Source: a virus (Duplodnaviria > Heunggongvirae > Uroviricota > Caudoviricetes). Taken from it: a DNA stretch of 30,976 bases. How positions within the stretch are numbered: position 1 is the stretch's first letter; every line of letters starts with the position of its first letter. The stretch lies in the IMG/VR virus record IMGVR_UViG_3300030444_000240. One strand, written 5' to 3'. This document shows positions 1 to 30,976 of the stretch, piece after piece. The notes below the pieces were generated by a model, which ran no database searches, had not been told where the DNA came from, and was given only the letters and a program-made list of their open reading frames with translations. Position numbers and translations under genes: made by a program.

Positions 1-3000
1 TTTCTCGGTGCCATGACGGAGGATGATGCCCGTCCTGAGGCACTGCGCCGTTTTGAACTGATGGTGGAAGAGGTGGCGCGTAACGCGTCCGCGGTGGCAC
101 AGAACACGGCAGCCGCGAAGAAGTCAGCCAGCGATGCCAGCACATCAGCCCGTGAGGCGGCAACCCATGCGACTGATGCTGCAGGCTCAGCACGCGCAGC
201 CAGCACGTCAGCCGGACAGGCTGCTTCGTCGGCTCAGTCAGCGTCTTCCAGCGCAGGAACGGCATCAACAAAGGCCACTGAAGCATTAAAAAGTGCTGCC
301 GCTGCAGAGTCCTCAAAAAGCGCGGCGGCTACCAGTGCCGGTGCGGCGAAAACGTCAGAAACGAATGCGGCAGCGTCACAACAATCAGCAGCCACTTCTG
401 CATCCACCGCGACCACGAAAGCGTCAGAAGCAGCCACTTCAGCACGGGATGCGTCGGCTTCAAAAGAGGCGGCAAAATCATCAGAAACGAACGCATCATC
501 AAGCGCCAGTAGTGCCGCTTCCTCGGCAACGGCGGCAGGAAATTCCGCGAAGGCGGCAAAAACGTCCGAGACGAACGCCAGGTCTTCTGAAACGGCAGCG
601 GGACAGAGCGCCTCGGCTGCGGCAGGCTCAAAAACAGCGGCTGCATCATCTGCCAGCGCCGCGTCAACAAGTGCCGGGCAGGCCTCAGCCAGTGCCACCG
701 CTGCCGGAAAGTCGGCAGAAAGTGCCGCATCGTCTGCTTCAACAGCCACAACGAAGGCTGGCGAAGCCACTGAGCAGGCCACGGCAGCAGCGAGGTCTGC
801 TTCCGCAGCGAAGACATCCGAAACGAACGCAAAAGCGTCGGAAACCCGTGCAGAATCCTCAAAAACGGCAGCGGCATCGTCCGCCAGTTCGGCGGCGTCA
901 TCGGCATCATCGGCGTCTGCTTCAAAAGATGAGGCGACCAGACAGGCGTCAGCAGCGAAGGGCAGCGCCACGACGGCATCCACGAAGGCGACAGAGGCTG
1001 CTGGCAGTGCGACGGCAGCAGCTCAGAGCAAAAGTACGGCGGAATCTGCAGCAACGCGCGCTGAGACAGCGGCAAAACGGGCAGAGGATATTGCATCCGC
1101 CGTGGCGCTTGAGGATGCGAGCACGACGAAAAAGGGGATAGTACAGCTCAGTAGTGCGACTAACAGCACTTCCGAGTCACTGGCGGCAACACCAAAAGCC
1201 GTTAAGGCCGCGTATGACCTGGCTAACGGGAAATACACCGCACAGGATGCAACGACAGCACAGAAAGGGATAGTTCAGCTAAGCAGTGCGACCAACAGTA
1301 CGTCTGAAACGCTGGCGGCAACGCCAAAGGCAGTAAAATCAGCCTATGACAATGCAGAGAAACGTCTGCAGAAAGACCAGAACGGCGCTGATATACCCGA
1401 TAAGGGACGCTTCCTGAACAACATTAACGCGGTCAGTAAAACAGACTTTGCTGATAAGCGTGGTATGCGTTATGTGCGGGTTAACGCTCCTGCAGGTGCA
1501 ACATCTGGAAAATATTACCCTGTTGTTGTTATGCGTTCTGCTGGCTCAGTAAGCGAACTGGCATCAAGGGTCATTATCACCACGGCAACGCGAACCGCAG
1601 GCGATCCGATGAATAACTGCGAGTTTAACGGATTTGTTATGCCTGGTGGCTGGACTGACAGGGGGCGTTATGCTTATGGAATGTTCTGGCAATATCAAAA
1701 CAATGAACGAGCCATCCACTCAATAATGATGAGTAATAAGGGCGATGATTTGCGCTCTGTGTTCTATGTTGATGGCGCAGCTTTCCCTGTTTTTGCGTTT
1801 ATCGAAGATGGCCTGTCAATATCCGCACCTGGTGCTGATCTCGTTGTTAATGATACGACCTATAAGTTTGGGGCAACAAATCCAGCGACTGAATGTATCG
1901 CGGCGGACGTTATCCTTGATTTTAAGAGTGGGCGTGGTTTTTATGAGTCTCATTCGTTAATCGTTAACGATAACTTGTCATGCAAAAAACTTTTTGCCAC
2001 AGACGAAATTGTAGCGCGTGGTGGTAATCAGATTCGAATGATAGGTGGGGAGTATGGTGCATTATGGCGTAATGATGGCGCTAAAACTTACCTGCTGCTT
2101 ACCAATCAAGGTGATGTTTATGGTGGCTGGAATACATTAAGACCGTTTGCTATTGATAACGCAACCGGCGAACTGGTTATTGGAACCAAACTGTCCGCAA
2201 GTCTGAACGGTAATGCATTAACAGCAACAAAGCTGCAAACGCCAAGACTGGTTTCTGGTGTTGAGTTTGATGGTTCCAAAGATATTACTTTAACCGCCGC
2301 GCATGTGGCTGCTTTTGCCAGAAGGGCAACGGATACATATGCCGATGCGGATGGTGGCGTTCCCTGGAATGCCGAATCAGGCGCTTACAATGTCACCCGC
2401 TCTGGCGACAGCTATATTCTGGTTAACTTCTATACCGGAGTCGGAAGTTGCCGGACCCTGCAGATGAAGGCGCATTACAGAAATGGTGGTCTGTTCTACC
2501 GTTCTTCAAGAGACGGTTATGGTTTTGAGGAAGGCTGGGCAGAAGTTTATACCTCGAAAAATCTTCCACCAGAAAGCTACCCAGTCGGCGCACCAATCCC
2601 GTGGCCATCAGATACCGTTCCGTCTGGTTATGCCCTGATGCAGGGGCAGACTTTTGACAAATCTGCCTACCCGAAACTTGCAGCCGCTTATCCGTCAGGC
2701 GTGATCCCTGATATGCGTGGCTGGACGATTAAGGGCAAACCCGCCAGTGGTCGTGCCGTATTGTCTCAGGAACAGGACGGCATTAAATCGCACACCCACA
2801 GCGCCAGCGCATCCAGTACGGATTTGGGTACGAAAACCACATCGTCGTTTGATTACGGCACTAAATCCACGAATAACACCGGGGCGCATACCCATAGTTT
2901 AAGTGGCAGCACGAATGCAGCTGGTAATCACAGCCATAGAGATGGCCGTCGATTTAACCCCAGTGTTTTTAAAGATACTTATCAATATGGTTATACAAGC

Positions 3001-3267
3001 TCAGGTCAAAATACCTGGGATGTACAAGGCTCAGTAGGTATGTCTACGGGGTGGTTAGCTAATACCAGTACAGATGGTAATCATAGCCACTCACTGTCCG
3101 GCACAGCAGCATCTGCAGGTGCACACGCGCATACTGTCGGTATTGGTGCTCATACGCACTCTGTTGCGATTGGCTCACATGGACACACCATCACCGTTAA
3201 CGCTGCTGGTAACGCGGAAAACACCGTCAAAAACATCGCATTTAACTACATTGTGAGGCTTGCATAA
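1..3267 (+). CDS. stf: Side tail fiber protein, lambda Stf-like (5' partial; frame open from window position 1)
   Basis: Translation begins [24 protein letters not shown], then a long Ala/Ser/Thr-rich segment with KTSETNA repeats, and ends with PIPWPSD...[10 protein letters not shown] and His-rich GAHTHS/GSHGHT repeats and [11 protein letters not shown], matching the lambda Stf architecture as recalled. The central part (about 1380-2550) is a different, non-repetitive domain, and there is a tandem repeat of a [28 protein letters not shown] unit at about 1129-1350. Confidence 0.9.
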
Positions 3268-3838
3268 TGGCATTCAGAATGAGTGAACAACCACGGACCA
3301 TAAAAATTTATAATCTGCTGGCCGGAACTAATGAATTTATTGGTGAAGGTGACGCATATATTCCACCTCATACAGGTCTGCCTGCAAACAGTACCGATAT
3401 TGCACNNNNNNNNNNNNNNNNNNNNNNNNNNNNNNNNNNNNNNNNNNNNNNNNNNNNNNNNNNNNNNNNNCATCTCGTTGAAGATCATCGGGGTAAAACG
3501 GTTTATGACGTGGCTTCCGGCGACGCGTTATTTATTTCTGAACTCGGACCGCTACCGGAAAATGTTACCTGGTTGTCGCCGGGAGGGGAATATCAGAAGT
3601 GGAACGGCACAGCCTGGGTGAAGGATACGGAAGCAGAAAAACTGTTCCGGATCCGGGAGGCAGAAGAAACAAAAAACAGCCTGATGCAGGTAGCCAGTGA
3701 GCATATTGCGCCACTTCAGGATGCTGTAGATCTGGAAATCGCAACGGAGGAAGAAATCTCGTTGCTGGAAGCATGGAAGAAGTATCGGGTGTTGCTGAAC
3801 CGTGTTGATACATCAACTGCACCTGATATTGAGTGGCC
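3141..3838. repeat. Direct repeat copy 1 (stf 3' end plus tfa), about 700 bp, nearly identical by eye to 27794-28482
   Basis: Aligned by eye: tattggtgctcatacgcact... through ...gatattga(g/a)tggcc, with scattered substitutions. Copy 1 contains the N gap. Confidence 0.8.
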
Positions 3839-3860
3839 GATAATTCCTGTAACATCATAG
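3267..3860 (+). CDS. tfa: Tail fiber assembly protein (Tfa), copy 1; interrupted by an N gap
   Basis: [46 protein letters not shown] ... matches lambda Tfa as recalled; the ATG overlaps the stf stop (TAATG). Residues across 3406-3470 are unknown. Confidence 0.85.
3406..3470. other. Assembly gap or masked bases (65 N)
   Basis: Run of n characters in the sequence. Confidence 1.
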
Positions 3861-6816: not shown

Positions 6817-7716
6817 TTATGTCTGGATGTGGTCGTCAACACATCCTCTTTTAAATACAGGCGCTTTTACCTTAGTTGGATCATCTGTTTTAAAGATTTT
6901 CAATCGTTCACTGAAGAACATTACCTCAGATCCTTTGTACCGATCTTGAGCACTGTAGTTTATTCCATATACTAATGATGATGTCTTATACATAGCTTGG
7001 ATCTCAGGAGTGTTATCGTAAGAAACAATCCAAGGTGTTTTAATATTATTCTGTACGACTTTTGCAACCCTAACATGATCATCATGATTATAATGGTTGA
7101 TATATAAACCTTTACCTTTTATGTAATAAGGTGGATCCAAATATGTTAATGAGTTTTGTGGCAATTGAATAACTATTTTTTTAATGAAATCAATTGCATC
7201 CATGTTATATAAATCTATTCTGTGACGATTTTCTGATATTTTATGGATTCGAGAAATCAAATCACTCTTATTATAGCGAGCGTCAAGCTTCCATTTCCCT
7301 TCTTGATTTTTACCGCCAATTACTCCACCTTTTAATATTCCAGAACGATTTGTTCTATTGAGAAAAAAGGTTGAGAAACCAATTGTTAAAAGATCATGGT
7401 CTTTAGGATTATTAATTATATCTTTCTGCCTAAACCATTCATCCATTGTAACTTCAGTTCTTTCAATTAAAGAACATAATTGATCTGCATGATTTAATAC
7501 ACTGTGCCAAAAAGCATAAACAGAAATATTAATATCATTAAGGATGATTTTTTCAGCTGCATTTAGATGTAACAGTTTCAATGCTAAACCAGCACCCCCA
7601 GCATATGGTTCGGCATAATGTATAGGCGAAAGATTATTTTCTTCAATAAGCCGAAGCATGAAATTTGCAAGCTTGCCTTTACCGCCAGGATAGCGAAGTG
7701 GGGTGTTAAAACGCAT
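6817..7716 (-). CDS. DNA N6-adenine methyltransferase, Dam/D12 class
   Basis: N-terminal RYPGGK, EPYAGGAG (AdoMet-binding motif I-like) and DPPY catalytic motif; 299 aa. Confidence 0.8.
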   Translation of the reverse strand: MRFNTPLRYPGGKGKLANFMLRLIEENNLSPIHYAEPYAGGAGLALKLLHLNAAEKIILNDINISVYAFWHSVLNHADQLCSLIERTEVTMDEWFRQKDIINNPKDHDLLTIGFSTFFLNRTNRSGILKGGVIGGKNQEGKWKLDARYNKSDLISRIHKISENRHRIDLYNMDAIDFIKKIVIQLPQNSLTYLDPPYYIKGKGLYINHYNHDDHVRVAKVVQNNIKTPWIVSYDNTPEIQAMYKTSSLVYGINYSAQDRYKGSEVMFFSERLKIFKTDDPTKVKAPVFKRGCVDDHIQT

Positions 7717-7750
7717 ATGATACCTCTAAATGTCAGATCTAAAGTATATC

Positions 7751-7789
7751 AAAAAAAGGGCTTTGTGGCCATCACATAAAGCCCTTTTT
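7751..7789 (-). terminator. Intrinsic terminator between the OLD-like gene and the MTase gene
   Basis: gggcttt-loop-aaagccc hairpin flanked by an A7 run and a T5 run; on the minus strand the stem is followed by a T-run. Confidence 0.6.
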
Positions 7790-7795
7790 AATCAA

Positions 7796-9529
7796 TTAGT
7801 TATCTGACAGATATGATGAGATGGTAGCAGAATCGACACCATGTCCACTTGTCATAATAACTTTAAGACTCTTTATTAGTTCATTCTTGAAGCTATCCGA
7901 TTGCACAGGATTTTTCTCGACCCAATATCGATATGGGTTATCTTTAACTCGCCCTTTTACTTGGGCCTGAAATTGAGTCGTATGTGCAAAATCTTTAAAC
8001 AGTTTTCTAACTATCCCGCCATGGTTTTTGTTAACTTTTTTATAATTATCTATAAGGATTTTTAAATCAATCGGAGCGTTACCAATCTTTAGCGTTGCAA
8101 TTATGTCTTTAGCTGTTTTCATAAAAACAGCTTTTGTAAATTTATTTTTATTTTCCCAATATGCATCATCAGGTGGTAAATTATATAAAAACTCAAAAAT
8201 CATTTGGTCTGGAGGTAAGGTGCTTGGAAGCAAACATAAGTTTTTTTCTTTTTTGGCTTTTTTTGCATTAGCACTATTGTCGTGAACAACATCACCGTCT
8301 AAGACGATCAAGCTTTTAGCTGTAAATTCTGGTATTTTTCTTGCCATTAAGTCAAGCATGGCAGAGCAGCTAATATTTATATTCCCTAATGGATTTAATA
8401 TTTTATTTATTTTTCGATCTGTTATCAATTGTTTGAAAAAGTCGAAACCTTCTTTGTCTTCAAAATATACATTTGCCTTTGGAAGACAAATGTCATCATT
8501 AATTTTTACAGTTTCAACATGTAAATCAGCGTGGATATCTGTCCATGAAAGATTATTCTTTGTTTTAATATCTCCATATGTGTCTGTAAGATATATTGTT
8601 TTAAAGCTATCACTATCTTGTTTTGAACGATTATAGATATCCTCTATTATTAATGGAGAGTGCGAGGTCATGATTATTTGCAGATCGTATTGTTTTGCTG
8701 CTTTAGTTAGAATATTAATTAGCTCTAACTGTGCAGCAGGGAAAAGACCTGCATCGGCTTCATCAATTAACAATATTCCGCCATGATAATCAGAATAAGT
8801 TTCCTTCAATCTTTTAAATGAAAAAATTGCTTGGATTAATTGTCCAACATTATCTTCACCAACAGATACTGATTGGTGATCATAATTGTCACCATGGACA
8901 ACCATTGAATCGATAGTACCTTTTGTTGCTGTTACTGAGCTTCCATTGTTTTTTAGTAAGAGTTGGTTACTCATCATTCTAATTTCATCAGAATTTTCAT
9001 TGATGTACTGAACATCCCGTGTTGAGTAATCAGTCCTTAATGTAATAGGAAGAAGTCGTGCTAAGCTTAAAAAAATAACAGGATGAGTAACGTTTCTACT
9101 TTGGTTTTTTTCCGGTATTGAATCATTTCCCCTGACTACAGGCCTTGATTTATCTCTGTCACTGTAGCTGTATAAACCTAATGTTAGTTTTTCAAGATGT
9201 TTGTTCGATGCACCATCATAGACACTAATTTTGACGTCCATTGAACCAGGAACATCAAATTGTTCTGAAAGCCTAAAATGTTCGCTGAAAGCTGACTTGA
9301 AGCTGCCATTTGTTAATGTTTTATATTGTGTTAAATCAGTCTCAGGGTTTTTGGTAAAGTCCTTTGTAAAGCTAAATATTTGGGCGATAATGCCAAGAAT
9401 TGTGGATTTAGATGTGCCATTTTTACCACAAATAACAGTTAGGCGAGAACCAAACTCGATGTTTATATTTTTCAGTCCGCGAAACTTCACAACATTTATA
9501 TTTTTTAGTTTGGTAATTTGATTTGCCAT
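7796..9529 (-). CDS. OLD-family ATP-dependent nuclease-like protein (ABC ATPase plus C-terminal Toprim-like domain)
   Basis: Walker A ICGKNGTSKST, Walker B ILLIDEAD, TSHSP motif, then C-terminal VYFEDKEGFDFF and LIVLDGD (DxD). Start chosen at MANQITKL (9529), which has a GGAG 9-13 nt upstream and a palindromic hairpin beyond it; the ORF track extends to 9580. Confidence 0.7.
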   Translation of the reverse strand: MANQITKLKNINVVKFRGLKNINIEFGSRLTVICGKNGTSKSTILGIIAQIFSFTKDFTKNPETDLTQYKTLTNGSFKSAFSEHFRLSEQFDVPGSMDVKISVYDGASNKHLEKLTLGLYSYSDRDKSRPVVRGNDSIPEKNQSRNVTHPVIFLSLARLLPITLRTDYSTRDVQYINENSDEIRMMSNQLLLKNNGSSVTATKGTIDSMVVHGDNYDHQSVSVGEDNVGQLIQAIFSFKRLKETYSDYHGGILLIDEADAGLFPAAQLELINILTKAAKQYDLQIIMTSHSPLIIEDIYNRSKQDSDSFKTIYLTDTYGDIKTKNNLSWTDIHADLHVETVKINDDICLPKANVYFEDKEGFDFFKQLITDRKINKILNPLGNINISCSAMLDLMARKIPEFTAKSLIVLDGDVVHDNSANAKKAKKEKNLCLLPSTLPPDQMIFEFLYNLPPDDAYWENKNKFTKAVFMKTAKDIIATLKIGNAPIDLKILIDNYKKVNKNHGGIVRKLFKDFAHTTQFQAQVKGRVKDNPYRYWVEKNPVQSDSFKNELIKSLKVIMTSGHGVDSATISSYLSDN

Positions 9530-9551
9530 GTTTCTATCTTGCTCCGTAAAA

Positions 9552-9570
9552 TGGCCACAAATTGTGGCCA
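9552..9570. other. Perfect 9+1+9 palindrome between the int 3' end and the OLD-like start
   Basis: tggccacaa-a-ttgtggcca; on the minus strand it is followed by ATTTTA. Could be the int terminator or a recombination or regulatory site. Confidence 0.4.
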
Positions 9571-9587
9571 ATAGTTTCATGCTTGGA

Positions 9588-10754
9588 TTATATTGTTATC
9601 TTCTTCAAGCTTGTTTGTCCATCATATTCCTTCAGATATGAGCCATAGTGCCTGAAAAGCATCTCAGGCCCTTTATGCCCCATTTGAGCTGCAAGCCAAA
9701 ACAGGTTTGCTCCCCGGCTGATATGTCTGGTGGCGAATGTATGCCTGGTTTGATATGGGTTTCTGTAACGAATACCTGCTTTTCGCAATGTTGGCACCCA
9801 TGCTTTTTTCCTAATTGCATCAGCACTTGCCCAGGGTTTATTGGTCTTTGGATCTTCAAAGACAGTAGCATCCTTCATGAATGTAAATGGCTTCTGGTTT
9901 ATCAACGCCAACATTGCTTCTTCAGTCAGTTCAACTTTACGGGTACCGGCTTTTGTCTTTGTTCCTTTGATAACTCCGACAACACTTGCGCTCTGAACAT
10001 GGGCTGTTTTTCCAACAAAGTCGATATCATGCCATCGTAGGGCACATAATTCAGAACTACGCAGGCCTGTATGTATGGCGAACCGGAACAGATTTTCCCA
10101 TTGTTTGTTTCCGGCTGCTGCTAGTAATGCATCAACTTCTGCTGGTGATAGCGGATCAACCACATAGCTGCTTTCTGCTTCTGACTTATCACTTTGGTAG
10201 CGCGAAGCAGTTACCAACGATACGGGGTTAATTTGAAGTACCCCATCGGTTACGGCTTCATCAAGTGCTGACCGCAGGAAAGATAACTGGTTGCGAATTG
10301 TTTTTAAGGTCGTTTTCTGGCTTTGAATCCACGCTTTCAGGATTGCTGGTGTTAATTCACTTGCAGGGCAAATGTGGAGTGAGGCTAACGCACTACGGCA
10401 TTTTTTATAACCACCAATCGTAGATGGTGAAAGTTTTCTCGTTTCGCAGATTTCAAGGTATTCGTCCAGGTACATTTTTACCGTTTTGCCTGCAGCAGCA
10501 TTACCAAAAATTTTCAAACGAGCAGAACGGGGAAAATATTCCGCATAAATGAATGTTCCCCTTTCGATCTTATTATGAATTTCGCCGAGTGTGCGCTCGG
10601 CGTATTTAATGTTCTTTGGTGTTACTTCCAGATTGGAAAGAGGCTCACGACATTTAACGCCTTTGTAGGTGAAAGTTATATTGATCGTTTCGCCCTGGCG
10701 GTGTTTCCTGATTGTTACGCCGCGCGGTAGTTTGAGCAGTTTTGTCTGGCCCAT
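9588..10754 (-). CDS. int: Tyrosine site-specific integrase
   Basis: 388 aa; C-terminal catalytic region with RHTFATRH (HxxR) and LFWLAAQMGHKGPEMLFRHYGSY (catalytic Tyr); N-terminal arm-binding-like segment. Confidence 0.9.
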   Translation of the reverse strand: MGQTKLLKLPRGVTIRKHRQGETINITFTYKGVKCREPLSNLEVTPKNIKYAERTLGEIHNKIERGTFIYAEYFPRSARLKIFGNAAAGKTVKMYLDEYLEICETRKLSPSTIGGYKKCRSALASLHICPASELTPAILKAWIQSQKTTLKTIRNQLSFLRSALDEAVTDGVLQINPVSLVTASRYQSDKSEAESSYVVDPLSPAEVDALLAAAGNKQWENLFRFAIHTGLRSSELCALRWHDIDFVGKTAHVQSASVVGVIKGTKTKAGTRKVELTEEAMLALINQKPFTFMKDATVFEDPKTNKPWASADAIRKKAWVPTLRKAGIRYRNPYQTRHTFATRHISRGANLFWLAAQMGHKGPEMLFRHYGSYLKEYDGQTSLKKITI

Positions 10755-12082: not shown

Positions 12083-12627
12083 TTTGTTCTCCACGTTATA
12101 TGCGCTGCACCGCGCTGAATTCGGGTAAAAGGAAGCCCTCACCGTCCGGCGATTATTGAGTCAATTACATTTCCATAAATGCCCCCGTAGGGGCGGTTAG
12201 TTTCTCCACAAAACAGAGAAGAACACCTGCGGTGGCAGCCGCCCGGATGGATTGGGTTATGAGCCCGTCGTCCGATGATGCTCTTCTCTGTTTTGTAAAA
12301 AGGACGGTACCAGCCGGAAGCAAGGGTACAAGCTGGTACCGCCAAGACAACACACAGCATAAAGTTGTGGTGCCGGGTGCCTCCCGGTGCCTGGCGAAGG
12401 TTGTACACCAGACGGGTGGGTATCCACAGAAGGTCGACTGTCAGCCTTAACCTTAACCCGCGTGCGCTGAGCCGCATTCACCACAACGCTAAGGATTCTC
12501 TCTGGTTGAAAATACTTAGCTGTTATGTGCCTGCTTTTAGCCACATCAGGCGAGGTGGACCTGGTTATTCCCCAACAACAAGGATTCGGTATAATCTGGA
12601 TATCCCAACAACAGGTAGGAAGGAAAT

Positions 12628-12711
12628 ATGTACGTAGATAGCAATGAAAAATTTCATGTTCCGGTAAATCAGAGACCAGCACCGATCCCTGAGCCGAAAC
12701 CTGAAATGTAA
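12628..12711 (+). CDS. Small ORF (27 aa) preceding the membrane protein gene
   Basis: TATAAT at 12590-12595, AGGAAGG RBS, ATG at 12628; encodes MYVDSNEKFHVPVNQRPAPIPEPKPEM. Speculative. Confidence 0.3.
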   Translation: MYVDSNEKFHVPVNQRPAPIPEPKPEM

Positions 12712-12721
12712 GGGAATAGAG

Positions 12722-13201
12722 ATGACTCGAGACGATCTAGCATTCGATATTCATTATTCTTTCTTTCTTGAGAAAATGAATTACACCCTTTTAAATCGGA
12801 TAGACAAGAGCATAACTCTTGTTCTCATTGTCTTGGGCTTTTCTGTTTTTGCGCCATATAGCAATATGTTTATTTTTGGCGCATCTGTAGCTATTTTGTC
12901 GGTGCTTCAATTGGTATACCAATTTGGGCAGGAAGCTGGCTTATCAAAGGAACAGATGCGACAGTATAAAAGGTTGATTGTTGAGTTTTCCTCCCTTTCT
13001 GATGACGAACTACGCACTCGGTTTTTAAAGGTTCAAGACGCTGATAGTAATCCATGGAGATCTTTACAAGATGCTGCGTTCAAACGGACCTGTATTGCGC
13101 TGGGACGTGTTGATGAGTCAGAAATATCATTCATGCATAGCGTTATCGCATGGTTTGCTGGAGATTTGCCTCGGTCAAAAAGGTGTAATAATGACAAATA
13201 G
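12722..13201 (+). CDS. Membrane protein of unknown function (two predicted TM helices), convergent with cI
   Basis: 159 aa; hydrophobic segments ITLVLIVLGFSVFAPY and IFGASVAILSVLQLVY. Lies in the immunity region on the strand opposite the repressor, with its own putative promoter. Confidence 0.55.
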   Translation: MTRDDLAFDIHYSFFLEKMNYTLLNRIDKSITLVLIVLGFSVFAPYSNMFIFGASVAILSVLQLVYQFGQEAGLSKEQMRQYKRLIVEFSSLSDDELRTRFLKVQDADSNPWRSLQDAAFKRTCIALGRVDESEISFMHSVIAWFAGDLPRSKRCNNDK

Positions 13202-13431
13202 AATTCCCATAATCCCTAACCATGTACCTCCAAAGCCCAGACCACCATCACCAAAGTCACACAGGCTTTATGAGTATGAATTAATAATGGATTCTATATT
13301 GAGATGACCAAATGAATGCATTTATATATACATGGAAAGAGGATCATATACCCTTAAAACCTCGTCCTTCACCGCCAGAACCGAAGCCAAAATCCCGTTA
13401 AGTGTTGGGGATCTCCAGATTGTTAAAGAGC

Positions 13432-13456
13432 GAAGCGTCCTATAGGGCGCTTTTTT
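13432..13456 (+). terminator. Possible intrinsic terminator (imperfect hairpin plus T6)
   Basis: gcgtcc-tata-gggcgc followed by tttttt. Confidence 0.35.
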
Positions 13457-13573
13457 GTTGCTAACGAATCATCCTGGACTTCATATGCCCCAGGCGGCTA
13501 CTTCGTGGGCGTCCTACCTGTTCGTTGTTTCTCTTGGGTACATTATGTATCTCAAAGGTACATTGTCAAGTAT

Positions 13574-13608: not shown

Positions 13609-14283
13609 TTAGGCTTTGATTTTGTATCTTCTTGGTTTTCCTGAGAAAATCACTGTACCAATTATAGAGCAATTACCGTTGATCTTAATGTAAGGTTCAG
13701 GCCAGTTTGGGTTTAATGCTTTGAGGTAACGCTGTGTTCCATCTTCTATCAACCGCTTGAAGGTGGTTTCGCCTGTATCGTGCATCAATGCAATAACGTC
13801 GTCACCGTGGCAGGCAGGGACTTCAGGATCAACAAAAATCATGTCTCCCGGGCGGTACTCATCAATCATTGAATCACCAATCACCCGCAAGATATAAGTC
13901 ATTTCGCCACAGGGTACAGGGCAGGGGTAAGTTTCTGCTGTGCTCAAATCAACCTCAGAATAGCCAACTTCTTTCCATGCTCCGGCCTGTACCCATGATA
14001 TGACAGGGACTAACGTTATTTGTTTGTTAGTGATTGAAACATCAGGTTTTTTTGTGATGTTCGTGGTCTGGTGTTCTTGATCAAGCCATCCGACAGGCAG
14101 GTCGAAACATTTTTCGATGTGCCGCGCCATGCTGTCACCGATATTTTTAGTAGCACCATCTCCCATAAACCTGCTGGTCTGGGTTGGCTCGCGATCAATC
14201 ATAGTGGCAAAGGAAGAATTCCCGCCAACACCATCTCTCAGTTTTCTGGCGTTAGACCGCCGGATGTCATGGATTGTTTTCAT
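13609..14283 (-). CDS. CI-like prophage repressor with S24 (LexA-like) autopeptidase domain
   Basis: 224 aa; C-terminal ILRVIGDSMIDEYRPGDMIFVD ... FKRL resembles the S24 Ser/Lys dyad region. Divergent from a Cro-like gene, with palindromic operators between them. Confidence 0.85.
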   Translation of the reverse strand: MKTIHDIRRSNARKLRDGVGGNSSFATMIDREPTQTSRFMGDGATKNIGDSMARHIEKCFDLPVGWLDQEHQTTNITKKPDVSITNKQITLVPVISWVQAGAWKEVGYSEVDLSTAETYPCPVPCGEMTYILRVIGDSMIDEYRPGDMIFVDPEVPACHGDDVIALMHDTGETTFKRLIEDGTQRYLKALNPNWPEPYIKINGNCSIIGTVIFSGKPRRYKIKA

Positions 14284-14298
14284 AACGAAATTAAAACC

Positions 14299-14368
14299 CT
14301 TGTACCGTTAAGGTACAAGTATCTTGAAGGTTCATTTCAATCATGTAATATGTACACCGGAGGTACAT
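14299..14368. promoter_or_regulatory. Operator and promoter region between cI-like and cro-like genes
   Basis: Two palindromes sharing TGTAC/GGTACA half-sites: CTTGTACCGTTAAGGTACAAG (14299-14319) and ATGTACACCGGAGGTACAT (14350-14368). Confidence 0.55.
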
Positions 14369-14605: not shown

Positions 14606-15169
14606 ATGAGGCTAACCGTGGGTAAGTATCACTGGAAAGTAGAAAAACAGCCTGAGTGGTACGTGAAAGCTGTCAGAAAAACTATCGCAGCGTTGCCGGG
14701 TGGTTACGCTGAAGCAGCTGACTGGCTGGATGTAACAGAGAACGCATTATTTAACCGCCTTCGTGCCGATGGCGATCAGATTTTCCCGCTGGGATGGGCA
14801 ATGGTTTTACAGCGCGCGGCTGGCACTCACTACATTGCGGATGCTGTCGCACAGTCTGCTGGTGGGGTGTTCGTATCGCTTCCTGAAATTGAGGAAGTAG
14901 AGAACGCCGATATAAACCAGCGCCTGCTGGAAGTCATCGAACAGATCGGGAATTACTCAAAGCAGATTCGTTCGGCAATCGAAGATGGGGTCGTGGAGCC
15001 ACACGAGCAGACAGCAATTAATGATGAGTTGTATCTGTCAATTTCGAAGCTCCAGGAACATGCAGCACTGGTCTACAAAATCTTTTGCGCTCCAGAAAAG
15101 AGTGACGCCCGCGAGTGTGCAGCTCCGGGCGTCGTGGCGTTTTGTGTCTGTGGAGAAACTAACGCATGA
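14606..15169 (+). CDS. Phage early regulatory protein (CII/YdaT-like position)
   Basis: 187-aa ORF following the cro-like gene; family assignment is uncertain. Confidence 0.45.
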   Translation: MRLTVGKYHWKVEKQPEWYVKAVRKTIAALPGGYAEAADWLDVTENALFNRLRADGDQIFPLGWAMVLQRAAGTHYIADAVAQSAGGVFVSLPEIEEVENADINQRLLEVIEQIGNYSKQIRSAIEDGVVEPHEQTAINDELYLSISKLQEHAALVYKIFCAPEKSDARECAAPGVVAFCVCGETNA

Positions 15170-16002
15170 ACAGTTTAACGGCAAATAACCGTTTGTCGCA
15201 ACAGCTGGTGGTCAGTGTCGCTGAACACCTGTTGTTACGGCATGAATGCAGATTACCAAATCTCCTGGCTGTAAGTAACCACAGAGAACTTTACCTGACT
15301 GTGGGGGGCGAGTTGTGCAGGAACTTAACCGCTGGTTTCGTGACGGAAGAGGACTTTATGTTCATGTTATTCGTTGGGAGCCAGAAACACAGCGCGTTAT
15401 CTATCTTCGCAAAGACTACCCGCATGAGTGCTTTAGTCCTTTGTGGAAATTCAGGCGTGATTTTGTTGAGTGTGAAGGACCACCAGCACATTGATTCTGC
15501 CATTCCGGGACGTTACACTGTTCAGGCACCTTATAAAGCGGGTGCCGGGATTGGCGTCCTGGAATTGATCAAGGCGATATATGACGCGCCAGCGTCTTTT
15601 TTATCGTCCGCATTTGCTCACATCAAAGTTATGGTGGGCTGGGCGGGGGCATCGAAAGATGCGCCGGTTTCCTTGATCACCGGTTACGCCAACCCCGTTC
15701 AGTTCACCACCAGCGAAATTGGCGTTTCCGGTGGTGGAAGTATTTCACCGATCAAGGAGGCTGCCATCATGGCTACTGTCCCAGCCCTCACTCGTCTGAA
15801 TGATGAAGACTTACATAAACTCAGTTATGTAACAACTGCACTACGTGCTCTGCGCAAGGTAACTCTTTCGGATCCGCAGGCACATCAGGTTCTGGTAGAA
15901 ACCCTTCTTAACTTGCAAGCTGAACGTATTCGTCTGGCGGATAAGGCTAATTTTCATATTCACCGTCTCCTGAATATCAGCGGAGGGCATCGTCATGCTT
16001 AA
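15166..16002 (+). CDS. Hypothetical early ORF, possibly a composite of several small genes or frameshifted
   Basis: A 278-aa ORF, but a protein-like alternative frame runs through 15309-15480 after a G6 tract (15303-15308), and there is an internal RBS-ATG at about 15769 (AAGGAGG ... ATGGCTACT). Confidence 0.3.
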   Translation: MNSLTANNRLSQQLVVSVAEHLLLRHECRLPNLLAVSNHRELYLTVGGELCRNLTAGFVTEEDFMFMLFVGSQKHSALSIFAKTTRMSALVLCGNSGVILLSVKDHQHIDSAIPGRYTVQAPYKAGAGIGVLELIKAIYDAPASFLSSAFAHIKVMVGWAGASKDAPVSLITGYANPVQFTTSEIGVSGGGSISPIKEAAIMATVPALTRLNDEDLHKLSYVTTALRALRKVTLSDPQAHQVLVETLLNLQAERIRLADKANFHIHRLLNISGGHRHA

Positions 16003-27908: not shown

Positions 27909-28482
27909 GGCTTGCATAATGGCATTCAGAATGAGTGAACAACCACGGACCATAAAAATTTATAATCTGCTGGCCGGAACTAATGAATTTATTGGTGAAG
28001 GTGACGCATATATTCCGCCTCATACAGGTCTGCCAGCAAACAGTACCGATATTGCACCGCCAGATATTCCGGCAGGCTTCGTGGCTGTTTTCAACAGTGA
28101 TGAGGCATCGTGGCATCTCGTTGAAGATCATCGGGGTAAAACGGTTTATGACGTGGCTTCCGGCGACGCGTTATTTATTTCTGAACTCGGTCCGTTACCG
28201 GAAAATGCCACTTGGTTATCCCCGGAAGGGGAGTTTCAGAAGTGGAACGGCACAGCCTGGGTGAAAGATGCAGAAGCAGAAAAACTATTCCGGATCCGGG
28301 AGGCGGAAGAAACAAAAAACAGCCTGATGCAGGCAGCGAATGAGCATATTGCGCCACTTCAGGATGCTGTAGATCTGGAAATCGCAACGGAGGAAGAAAA
28401 CTCGTTGCTGGAAGCCTGGAAAAAGTATCGGGTGTTGCTGAACCGTGTTAATACAACAACTGCTCCGGATATTGAATGGCCA
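27794..28482. repeat. Direct repeat copy 2 (stf 3' end plus tfa), nearly identical by eye to 3141-3838
   Basis: See copy 1; the junction with Nu1 is at about 27794-27796. Confidence 0.8.
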
Positions 28483-28500
28483 GTAGCACCTATAGGGTAA
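27919..28500 (+). CDS. tfa: Tail fiber assembly protein (Tfa), copy 2, intact
   Basis: 193 aa, [74 protein letters not shown]...; nearly identical to copy 1 until the C-terminal tail. Confidence 0.9.
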
Positions 28501-29996: not shown

Positions 29997-30749
29997 GTGG
30001 ATGATATGGCAACTACATGTTCAGTTATATTGATTTTGGAGTCCTTTGATGTTTATTTCGGAAAAGAGAGTGTGTTTCTGGAGAGAGGTTCATCTGTACT
30101 TGTCGACTCTAGCTCTAGAGATTTTTTCCTGACATATCCTGAAAGAGTGATAGTGGCGGATTTTGGCGCTGAGTTTATTAGTCGCTATTTGAAAGCTAAT
30201 AACTTAAGGGATATTTCTGATTGTAGGGAATATCCATCTTATTTAAAAATAAACTTTGCTGACTTCAGTTTAATTAAAGGATTAATTAGTTGGGCTAATC
30301 ACTGTGCTGAATACATAGAAATTTTTGATGAGTCTATTGCTTTTACATGTCTCTCTGCATTTTCTTCTGAAAAACAATTTGGAGTATTTCTGTTTGAATG
30401 TTTGAAAAGCACAGGGGCTAAAGTTAAAACGATTATTCATACGGATTTATCTGCACCATGGCGTCTTAAGGATATATCATCAAGATTATATCTCAGCGAA
30501 AGTTTACTAAAGAGGAAATTGAAAGAAGAGGGGGTATCATTCAGTAAGATCATACTTGATGAGAGGATGCAAATGGCTGAATATTTACTCTGCACTCGTT
30601 GTTATCCTATTAGTAAAGTAGCTAAGGTCTGTGGTTATGCCAGTGTCTCATACTTTACTTATGTATTTAGACGTTATTTTGGTGTTTCTCCAAGTCAATA
30701 CTCTCAGAGGAGTTCAGAAAGTAAAATTCTTACTCACCAGGGAATCTGA
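29997..30749 (+). CDS. AraC-family transcriptional regulator (AppY/EnvY-like)
   Basis: 250 aa; C-terminal HTH region WRLKDISSRLYLSESLLKRKLKEEGVSFSKIILDERMQMAEYLL ... YFTYVFRRYFGVSPSQY. Confidence 0.8.
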   Translation: MDDMATTCSVILILESFDVYFGKESVFLERGSSVLVDSSSRDFFLTYPERVIVADFGAEFISRYLKANNLRDISDCREYPSYLKINFADFSLIKGLISWANHCAEYIEIFDESIAFTCLSAFSSEKQFGVFLFECLKSTGAKVKTIIHTDLSAPWRLKDISSRLYLSESLLKRKLKEEGVSFSKIILDERMQMAEYLLCTRCYPISKVAKVCGYASVSYFTYVFRRYFGVSPSQYSQRSSESKILTHQGI

Positions 30750-30753
30750 TCAT

Positions 30754-30976
30754 TGTTCTTGCCCCCTTATTTCCAGACAGGGGGTGTATCTTAAGTTAAC
30801 GTTACCCGCTGACGTCGATATTCTCGCGGAGAGCGATAACCCAACGCACTGTGCGGATGGTTTTCATTGTAATGTTCGATCGCCACTGCAAGATTATGCA
30901 ATGCCGTTCTTACATTCGGTTTCGGCATGAACGCGATGTAGTCTTCCTTCATCGTTTTCACGAACCTTTCTGCCAT
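30754..30976 (-). mobile_element. IS3-family (IS2-like) element, partial: terminal inverted repeat and transposase C-terminus; continues beyond the window
   Basis: The minus-strand ORF ends ...[55 protein letters not shown], like the IS2 InsD C-terminus as recalled; flanking DNA (...GCCCCCTTATTTCCAGACA..., ...GAGCGATAACCCAACGCACTGTGCGGATG...) resembles the IS2 end. Confidence 0.7.

Follow-up and report, generated by a model that had tools for sequence, protein, structure and literature searches.

The slot between cI and the early-left genes of lambdoid prophages is a hotspot of mosaic diversity, occupied by rexAB in lambda and by bstA in BTP1 (Owen et al. 2021, PMC8585504). Among proline-rich antimicrobial peptides (PrAMPs), active variants of apidaecin (Api) carry a net charge of +2 to +4, Api genes are active when expressed inside E. 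coli, and activity needs P11 and R12 together with a C-terminal R17 and L18 (PMC11347161). Here we describe an operon that lies in the cI-to-early-left slot and encodes a membrane protein together with proline-rich microproteins. It was found in the IMG/VR virus record IMGVR_UViG_3300030444_000240, a 30,976-nt stretch of Caudoviricetes DNA (hereafter the window) that is from E. coli and 100% identical to strain KCJ3K291; the region of the operon belongs to an e14/CPS-53-like lambdoid prophage. An earlier note on this DNA, made from the sequence alone, had described a two-gene module here, composed of a 27-amino-acid (aa) open reading frame (ORF) and a 159-aa protein with two transmembrane (2TM) helices. 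We find that the operon (12529-13459, plus strand) has four genes, in the order uP, 2TM membrane protein, dP1 and dP2; the last two, which the note overlooked, are encoded in the 230-nt stretch between the stop codon of the 159-aa gene and the terminator. Literature searches, which included the module and its accession numbers, found no description of it. The features of the operon are:

12568-12573 (+): weak -35-like element, TTCCCC
12590-12595 (+): presumed -10 element, TATAAT, separated from the -35-like element by a 16-nt spacer
12617-12624 (+): strong Shine-Dalgarno sequence of uP, AGGAAGGA
12628-12711 (+): uP, a 27-aa proline-rich microprotein, MYVDSNEKFHVPVNQRPAPIPEPKPEM, whose stop lies 10 nt ahead of the membrane-protein ATG
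12722-13201 (+): 159-aa inner-membrane protein, WP_000196297.1
13191-13307 (+): dP1, a 38-aa proline-rich basic microprotein, MTNRIPIIPNHVPPKPRPPSPKSH..., with AAGGTG 6 nt upstream
13312-13401 (+): dP2, a 29-aa proline-rich basic microprotein, MNAFIYTWKEDHIPLKPRPSPPEPKPKSR
13432-13453 (+): intrinsic terminator found by terminator scan (stem 13432-13440 / 13445-13453), followed by a T-run

The TATAAT, the ribosome-binding site ahead of the 27-aa ORF, both ORFs and a terminator near 13432-13456 are all present as the earlier note had placed them. The three microproteins share the core H-V-P-P-x-P-R-P-P-x-P, which takes the form HVPVNQRPAPIPEPKP in uP, HVPPKPRPPSPK in dP1 and HIPLKPRPSPPEPKP in dP2. 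A regular expression for this motif had four matches in the six-frame translation of the 31-kb window, three of them in the operon, compared with 0.33 +/- 0.57 in 100 shuffles. The ratio of nonsynonymous to synonymous variation (pN/pS) in the peptides was 0.11-0.32 at a pS of ~0.5 (0.17 for the Fels-2-type uP, 0.11-0.16 for dP1 and 0.31-0.32 for dP2), and variable sites were in excess at third codon positions, with counts per codon position of 9/5/24 for the Fels-2-type uP and of 5/4/20, 2/4/14 and 12/12/27 in the other sets. In an alignment of 32 diverse peptides, the His and four Pro positions were at least 90% conserved, and the aliphatic residue that follows the His and basic residues were also conserved. 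The peptides are protein-coding and under purifying selection, and the 27-aa ORF is a real and conserved gene.

Members of the family are 21-38 aa long, mostly 21-29 aa, and all are hydrophilic. uP is either acidic or neutral and in most loci has acidic flanks, and dP1 and dP2 are basic, with a net charge of +3 to +5. Their C-termini vary (KG, GK, PKR, QPKPK and long tails). Nine of the ten peptide sequences that were looked up are not in a collection of 15 billion proteins, a profile of the peptides had no sequence match in the PDB, and scans of Pfam, NCBIfam and PADLOC gave no significant family. Two candidate descriptions of the peptides were rejected: membership of the apidaecin family, as R17 and L18 are missing, and stalling dependent on elongation factor P (EF-P) as a property common to all, as several uP variants lack a PP dipeptide.

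The microproteins and the membrane protein are linked well beyond the window. Loci were gathered from contigs encoding homologues, from IMG/VR and from GenBank phages; the scan of genome contigs itself gave three loci. Of 75 distinct homologous loci, lambdoid and P2-like prophages included, all those whose upstream DNA was available have a proline-rich ORF that ends 2-21 nt ahead of the 2TM ATG. The TGA stop of uP overlaps, in most lambdoid loci, the Shine-Dalgarno sequence of the membrane gene (TGAGG), 8 nt ahead of its ATG, and the start of dP1 overlaps or abuts the membrane gene stop across loci; in the window, the dP1 ATG overlaps the end of the 159-aa ORF by 11 nt in another frame. The upstream peptide is present with homologues of ~34% identity, in the P2-like Fels-2 (MSDSDNFHVLPRPAPAPKPEPGQDKK), Yersinia phage vB_YenM_42.18, Providencia phage PSTNGR2lys and Elizabethkingia phage EKP1. 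Lambdoid versions have one to three further peptide copies downstream of the 2TM gene: dP1 is kept as a 21-25-aa ORF, paralogues of dP2 occur in many loci, and the number of downstream peptides reaches three in some.

Natural gene fusions join the same partners. In Pectobacterium P0022 (two assemblies), dP1 is fused in frame to the membrane protein as a C-terminal tail, ...MAKPPVDGHIPPRPRPPAPPKAQN, and dP1-dP2 fusions occur in loci L002, L017 and L018. An AlphaFold2 (AF2) model of the natural 2TM-dP1 fusion has a linker with a predicted local distance difference test score (pLDDT) below 50, and confidence recovers to 67 in the PRPP tail. We also ran a degenerate DNA pattern for H[VIM]PPxP[RS]PP over 2.9 million IMG/VR viral contigs and found 52 loci; a 2TM homologue ends 4-120 nt upstream in 41 of these, and in the remaining 11, all high-GC stretches rich in Arg and Pro, the locus contains no 2TM homologue. 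Collectively, these data show that the membrane protein and the microproteins form an obligately linked, translationally coupled unit, at identities of at least ~31% and in at least four phage contexts, and that the conserved operon combines one two-TM protein and between one and four proline-rich microproteins.

Two of these loci gave observations of their own. The Fels-2 module (L013 2887-3435; NC_010463 ~30253-30801) is unannotated, STM2733.1 and part of STM2735 having been called over it on the opposite strand. In Yersinia phage vB_YenM_42.18 (L014), a 15-nt long-range repeat that is 93% complementary (2848-2862/3359-3373) connects the Shine-Dalgarno sequence and start codon of the upstream peptide ORF with a site inside the 2TM gene, and a second, perfect 15-nt pair (2991-3005 / 3140-3154) lies just past the 2TM start; these repeats may reflect mRNA-level control of translation.

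The 159-aa protein matches phrog_6315 (2.8e-51), a PHROGs family of unknown function, and has 78 close homologues, in Enterobacterales. A profile search extended the family to 254 clusters at 50% identity, nearly all of them stand-alone proteins of ~150-180 aa. Hydropathy (Kyte-Doolittle) places two hydrophobic segments, separated by a 4-residue loop, around residues ~38 and ~57. The AF2 model (pLDDT 77), with helices at 3-43, 50-87, 94-107, 113-127 and 137-145, agrees that there are two TM helices; the predicted fold is a long N-terminal helix running into TM1, then TM2, and then a cytoplasmic domain of three helices. R26-x-D28, D108-S-x-P-W and a C-terminal A-G-D-L-P (the end reading W-x-AGDLP) are conserved as motifs. 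No significant Pfam, NCBIfam or PADLOC family was found for the protein. Pfam includes a model for SieB; scanned against Pfam at E <= 10, the protein gave Ion_trans_N (0.33) only, with no SLATT, Rex or SieB match. By the Pfam, PADLOC and NCBIfam scans it does not belong to the Rex or SieB families, and PHROGs gave families of unknown function only.

The architecture nevertheless fits that of SLATT proteins, with an N-terminal helix, two close TM helices and a C-terminal helical extension, and UniRef names some of the homologues SLATT. Sub-threshold matches to SLATT_1, SLATT_4, SLATT_5 and DUF4231 all fall on the region of the N-terminal helix and the two TM helices. Among 32 close homologues the best values were 0.034 for SLATT_5 and 0.0095 for DUF4231; 117 distant members had no SLATT match at E <= 0.01. 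The NCBIfam SLATT_4 and SLATT_1 models gave 0.016-0.034, with Yersinia and Providencia homologues only. SLATT proteins made up 10 of the top 35 structural matches in BFVD, all at E >= 0.04. Because both the profile and the structural matches are weak, we call the protein SLATT-like only; sequence and model suggest a likeness, not demonstrated membership.

The operon is framed by non-coding ends that are more conserved than its genes. The elements of this frame are:

12529-12612 (+): conserved 5' block of ~85 nt
12529-12533 / 12547-12551: hairpin in the 5' block, GCCTG / CAGGC
12570-12579 and 12604-12612: direct repeat in the 5' block, CCCCAACAAC
12593-12606: 5' arm of an inverted repeat, AATCTGGATATCCC, overlapping the -10 and start-site region
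13408-13421: 3' arm of the inverted repeat, GGGATCTCCAGATT
13423-13456 (+): 3' block, TTAAAGAGC plus the intrinsic terminator

Between genera (Sodalis, Atlantibacter, Pectobacterium, Klebsiella and Cronobacter), the 5' block is 83-93% identical, compared with 63-67% for the coding sequences. The 3' block, ~58 nt across loci, is 78-88% identical between genera, with a conserved terminator stem and a variable loop. The 5' block had no Rfam family match, and RNAalifold recovered only an invariant 5-bp hairpin in it, with no covariation. The position of the -10 element is kept across loci: most read TAATCT or GTTAAT there, a perfect TATAAT is present in the Providencia phage homologue, and the TATAAT of the window arises from a lineage-specific 1-nt insertion in what most homologous loci read as GGTTAATCT.

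In the window the two arms of the inverted repeat are complementary at 13 of 14 positions. This 14-16-nt repeat is conserved in 180 loci, which represent 49 distinct arm pairs. Compensatory changes are found in the Salmonella group (GGATAC/GTATCC) and in L072 and L073 ((G/T)ATATACC/GGTATAT(C/A)), the L057-L066 group has swapped both arms completely, to GTAACCCTC/GAGGGTTAC, and in variant lineages cognate arms pair better than non-cognate ones. Neither strand is favoured by the duplex energies (sum -740 for plus versus -757 for minus) or by the counts of G-U versus A-C pairs in the arms (29 v 23). The overlap of the 5' arm with the presumed -10 and start site means that the mRNA may lack this arm. 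That the arms are the terminal inverted repeats of a mobile element was considered and rejected, because the conserved blocks reach ~65 nt and ~45 nt outside them.

The same two blocks, the 5' promoter/leader and the 3' inverted-repeat arm with its terminator, flank unrelated genes in other prophages, with at least two other types of cargo (loci L146 and L148-L227). In E. coli O103:H2 12009 (L146 1838-2510) the cargo is a 171-aa coiled-coil protein with two CxxC pairs (WP_000559922.1), which is also the commonest cargo among the 84 IMG/VR loci found by the 5' block; in two loci it is a 148-aa protein that starts MSVISEEFF. Pfam, NCBIfam and PADLOC scans of these alternative cargo proteins gave no known or defence family. 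In K-12 e14, ymfI/ymfJ occupy the slot and only the hairpin is kept. The frame looks like a generic, exchangeable moron unit, and the loci show that the module is packaged as an exchangeable cassette in an immunity-region hotspot.

The position of the cassette relative to the early-left promoter (PL) bears on when it could be expressed. The features between the cassette and the repressor gene, with the repressor itself, are:

13526-13542 and 13546-13562: two OL operators overlapping PL, of the 17-nt family TGTAyC-N5-GGTACA
13569->13542 (-): PL, TTGACA-16-CATAAT, scoring 11/12 in the promoter scan
13609-14283 (-): repressor ymfK, of S24/LexA type (Pfam Peptidase_S24 1.5e-26; name from RefSeq)

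The 17-nt operator recurs three times at OR (14301-14368), which identifies the near-consensus minus-strand promoter that overlaps two copies of it as PL. It is bracketed by the module terminator and the cI terminator (13597-13578), and it reads leftward, antisense across the whole module, before reaching the first early-left gene. With PL placed between it and cI, the module runs antisense to the early-left transcript and is not co-transcribed with cI. The promoter scan found no minus-strand promoter-like site within 12590-13456. The earlier note had the module convergent with cI at the position of rex/sieB-type genes; strand, convergence with ymfK and the cI-to-early-left slot were borne out, and the geometry, with PL in between, proved unlike that of rex. 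In P2-like phages the module is likewise antisense within the early operon, and in the loci compared it sits between the early-left genes and the repressor with differing repressor types; in phage EKP1 it lies between Q and holin. Across 12 loci, the genes next to it are the usual early genes and repressors of lambdoid or P2 phages.

We favour, at a little short of an even chance, a reading in which the peptides are regulatory or antitoxin-like subunits bound to the cytoplasmic domain and the complex is a membrane-acting exclusion or abortive-infection effector expressed in the lysogen. The peptides would be located in the cytoplasm as partners of the C-terminal domain of the membrane protein, with a gating or antitoxin role. 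The operon would be on in the lysogen, as suggested by its antisense placement to the repressed early operon, and would be shut down by convergent PL transcription upon induction. The complex would be analogous in function to RexB or to SLATT-type pore effectors. In support of this reading we count the fusions, the selection on coding sequence, the translational coupling, the position in an immunity-region hotspot and the SLATT-like fold matches; the cassette frame with its other cargo genes, moreover, makes the site resemble defence hotspots.

Several points weigh against it. No PADLOC defence model and no Rex, SieB or SLATT hidden Markov model (HMM) is matched significantly, and among the neighbours in the 12 loci there is no sensor or nucleotide-signalling partner (SMODS, SLOG, TIR). 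The exclusion role is read from position and architecture, and the peptide-protein interaction from gene fusion and linkage alone. As the other cargo is likewise without an assigned function, "defence hotspot" is itself an argument by analogy. Finally, the promoter is weak by consensus, and the site at 12590-12595 was unlisted in the consensus promoter scan because of its weak -35; of the claim that the module has its own promoter, what stands is the TATAAT as a positionally conserved promoter-like element.

A more far-reaching reading, which we regard as doubtful, is that the H-V-P-P-x-P-R-P-P-x-P microproteins would be a new class of phage polyproline-II ligand that gates or arms a SLATT-like pore serving as a suicide or exclusion effector. 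They might act via the ribosome tunnel or a chaperone, as PrAMPs do, and the module would be housed in an exchangeable cassette of a kind not described before, in which selection keeps the promoter and terminator ends complementary.

Among the alternatives, the one that survives best, though we consider it unlikely, is that the module serves lysogenic conversion or phage regulation with no anti-phage role (acting for example on FtsH/HflKC, Sec/YidC or transporters, in the lysis-lysogeny decision or in host fitness), or that it encodes a classical injection-blocking superinfection exclusion (Sie) protein. The immunity-region location and lysogen-type orientation would suit such a role, as would the presence of the module in many Enterobacterales prophages and its position in EKP1, since the interval between Q and holin is a typical moron site. 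However, the protein does not resemble known Sie or conversion proteins, no specific host target can be connected with it, and a SLATT-like fold is more typical of suicide effectors.

Somewhat less probable, in our view, is that the small ORFs are cis-acting elements of translational control, in which ribosomes slowed or stalled on proline-rich codons (in an EF-P-dependent or arrest-peptide-like manner) set the dose of a potentially toxic membrane protein and the peptide products are dispensable. Many copies do contain PP-type motifs (RPPAPP, VPPKP, EPPPKP), and the overlaps of the uP stop with the Shine-Dalgarno sequence and of dP1 with the stop of the membrane gene are what such control would use. 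The uP of the window and all Fels-2-type uPs, however, have no consecutive prolines (RPAPIPEPKP, LPRPAPAPKPEP), and conservation extends to positions other than proline (the His at 90% or more, the next aliphatic residue and the basic residues), with pN/pS of 0.11-0.32. Moreover, one to three copies follow the gene that would be regulated, a position from which no leader could act, and some copies are fused in frame to the membrane protein.

We consider it improbable that the basic dP peptides are intracellular analogues of PrAMPs of the oncocin/apidaecin type, blocking either the exit tunnel of the ribosome or DnaK. On this view they would be the toxic arm of a module for abortive infection or addiction, and would be restrained or released by uP, the membrane protein or both. 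The PRPPxP core and the start, an aromatic residue or His followed by an aliphatic residue and Pro, resemble apidaecin YIPQPRPPHPRL, and the net charge of the dP peptides, +3 to +5, compares with +2 to +4 for active Api variants. The variable C-termini of the phage peptides do not conserve R17-L18, however, the uP peptides are acidic or neutral, and the peptide profile is without a PDB sequence match. In addition, a constitutive ribosome poison would be costly in a lysogen. Lastly, the notion that the small ORFs are chance frames in a spacer rich in proline codons, with the 159-aa gene alone real, would suit ORFs too short for gene callers and mostly absent from the protein collection, but it is effectively refuted by the conserved position and reading frame in 75 distinct loci, the third-codon-position excess of substitutions, the enrichment of the motif over shuffles and its near-exclusivity to the module in IMG/VR, and the natural fusions.

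The module brings to light a conserved family of proteins of 21-38 aa, overlooked by annotation pipelines, and ties it genetically to phrog_6315, a widespread phage membrane protein of unknown function. If the peptides do regulate a SLATT-like pore, the operon would be a compact and tractable model for the control of stand-alone 2TM effectors, and would add a new kind of prophage-encoded exclusion system to the rex/sieB slot. With its swappable cargo, the conserved non-coding frame is a handle for finding lysogen-expressed accessory genes by their flanks alone.

The rest of the prophage around the module is laid out as follows:

9588-10754 (-): integrase; also an excisionase
between the integrase end and the module (-): DUF551 and HD/YfdR genes
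beyond the repressor (+): cro-like ymfT, CII-like ymfL and replication genes

The first ~70 nt of the PL leader (13457-13525; GCTAACGAATCATCC...GGCGTCC; 2511-2580 in L146 and L147) are kept despite different cargo and repressors, and in most loci (T/C)GCGAATCATCC follows the cassette terminator. Within the PL transcript, just past the module, 12294-12517 (-) has a full-length sub-threshold match to STnc100, a prophage small RNA (sRNA) family (40.4 bits versus a gathering score of 47, E 6e-7). RefSeq treats this stretch as a frameshifted pseudogene, its K-12 counterpart is annotated ymfH, and the match was not found in eight other loci. STnc100 is related to PasD (bioRxiv 10.64898/2026.05.13.724894). 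Between the STnc100-like element and the first early-left gene lies a long inverted repeat (12204-12300; CTCCACAAAACAGAGAAGA ... TCTTCTCTGTTTTGT); the Atlantibacter locus L004 has a similar sequence with both arms changed. A Klebsiella prophage with the module has a sub-threshold DicF-like match in its early-left region (L011 2994-3042, minus strand, 33 bits, E 0.0025), and early-left sRNAs seem common in module-bearing phages.

Three further observations concern more distant parts of the window. In the early-right region, isrK (64 bits) and C4 antisense RNA (82 bits) are both matched above threshold, next to each other, at 15526-15714 (+), inside an ORF (15166-16002) that RefSeq splits into DUF4222 and ash-family genes. 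Matches to the IS009 RNA family at 3619-3817 and 28262-28460 (+; 229 and 212 bits) fall within ORFs of ~195 aa (3267-3860 and 27919-28500), the first preceded by a 1084-aa ORF. Going by size and arrangement only, we read these ORFs as tail-fibre and assembly genes, in which case the matches may be conserved coding sequence and not an RNA gene. Directly beyond the prophage integrase, 6817-9580 (-) encodes a DNA adenine methylase and a 594-aa AAA_15/AAA_21 ATPase whose best PADLOC matches are models of the PtuA, AriA and GajA type. Further to the left there is a second integrase, intA. The stretch is probably either defence cargo or an island of its own at the attachment site.

Like apidaecin and oncocin, the phage peptides are short (~20-38 aa, with Api at 18 aa) and the downstream ones are cationic, and most dP peptides have PRPPxP, matching P11-R12 of the PRPPHP core of apidaecin. 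Unlike PrAMPs, they are encoded by bacteria or phages, presumably cytoplasmic and always linked to a membrane protein, their upstream copy is acidic, and they lack the R17-L18 C-terminus essential in apidaecin. With type I toxin mRNAs of the hok/sok kind the operon shares a membrane protein preceded by a coupled small ORF and a covarying complementarity between 5' and 3' ends, whose 5' arm may here lie outside the mRNA; it differs in that its protein has 159 aa, not fewer than 60, and in having no antisense promoter-like site inside the module.

The membrane protein resembles SLATT effectors in its size of ~150 aa, its all-helical build of N-terminal helix, two-TM hairpin and C-terminal helices, and its carriage on mobile elements. 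It falls below every SLATT HMM threshold, however, stands alone without a SMODS, SLOG, TIR or cyclase partner, and has constant proline-rich microprotein partners, for which the literature searched describes no counterpart in SLATT systems. Lambda RexAB and P22/lambda SieB share with it the location in the repressor/early-left hotspot and a small inner-membrane protein presumably made in the lysogen. There is no sequence relationship to either; the module protein has two TM helices, compared with four in RexB, and the module contains neither a RexA-like sensor nor a RexA-sized ORF. It is convergent with cI, antisense to PL and in a cassette of its own, whereas rex is transcribed from PRM together with cI. 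Prophage defence hotspots and morons (BstA next to cI; P2/P4) offer a further parallel, with variable cargo at a fixed site near the repressor and its own terminator, although none of the three cargo types seen here matches a known defence family. As with morons, the module is present or absent among related prophages (ymfI/ymfJ in K-12 e14, the 171-aa gene in O103:H2) and antisense to PL. What sets it apart from the BstA and P2/P4 hotspots is that the exchangeable unit is bounded by conserved non-coding blocks and not by conserved genes.

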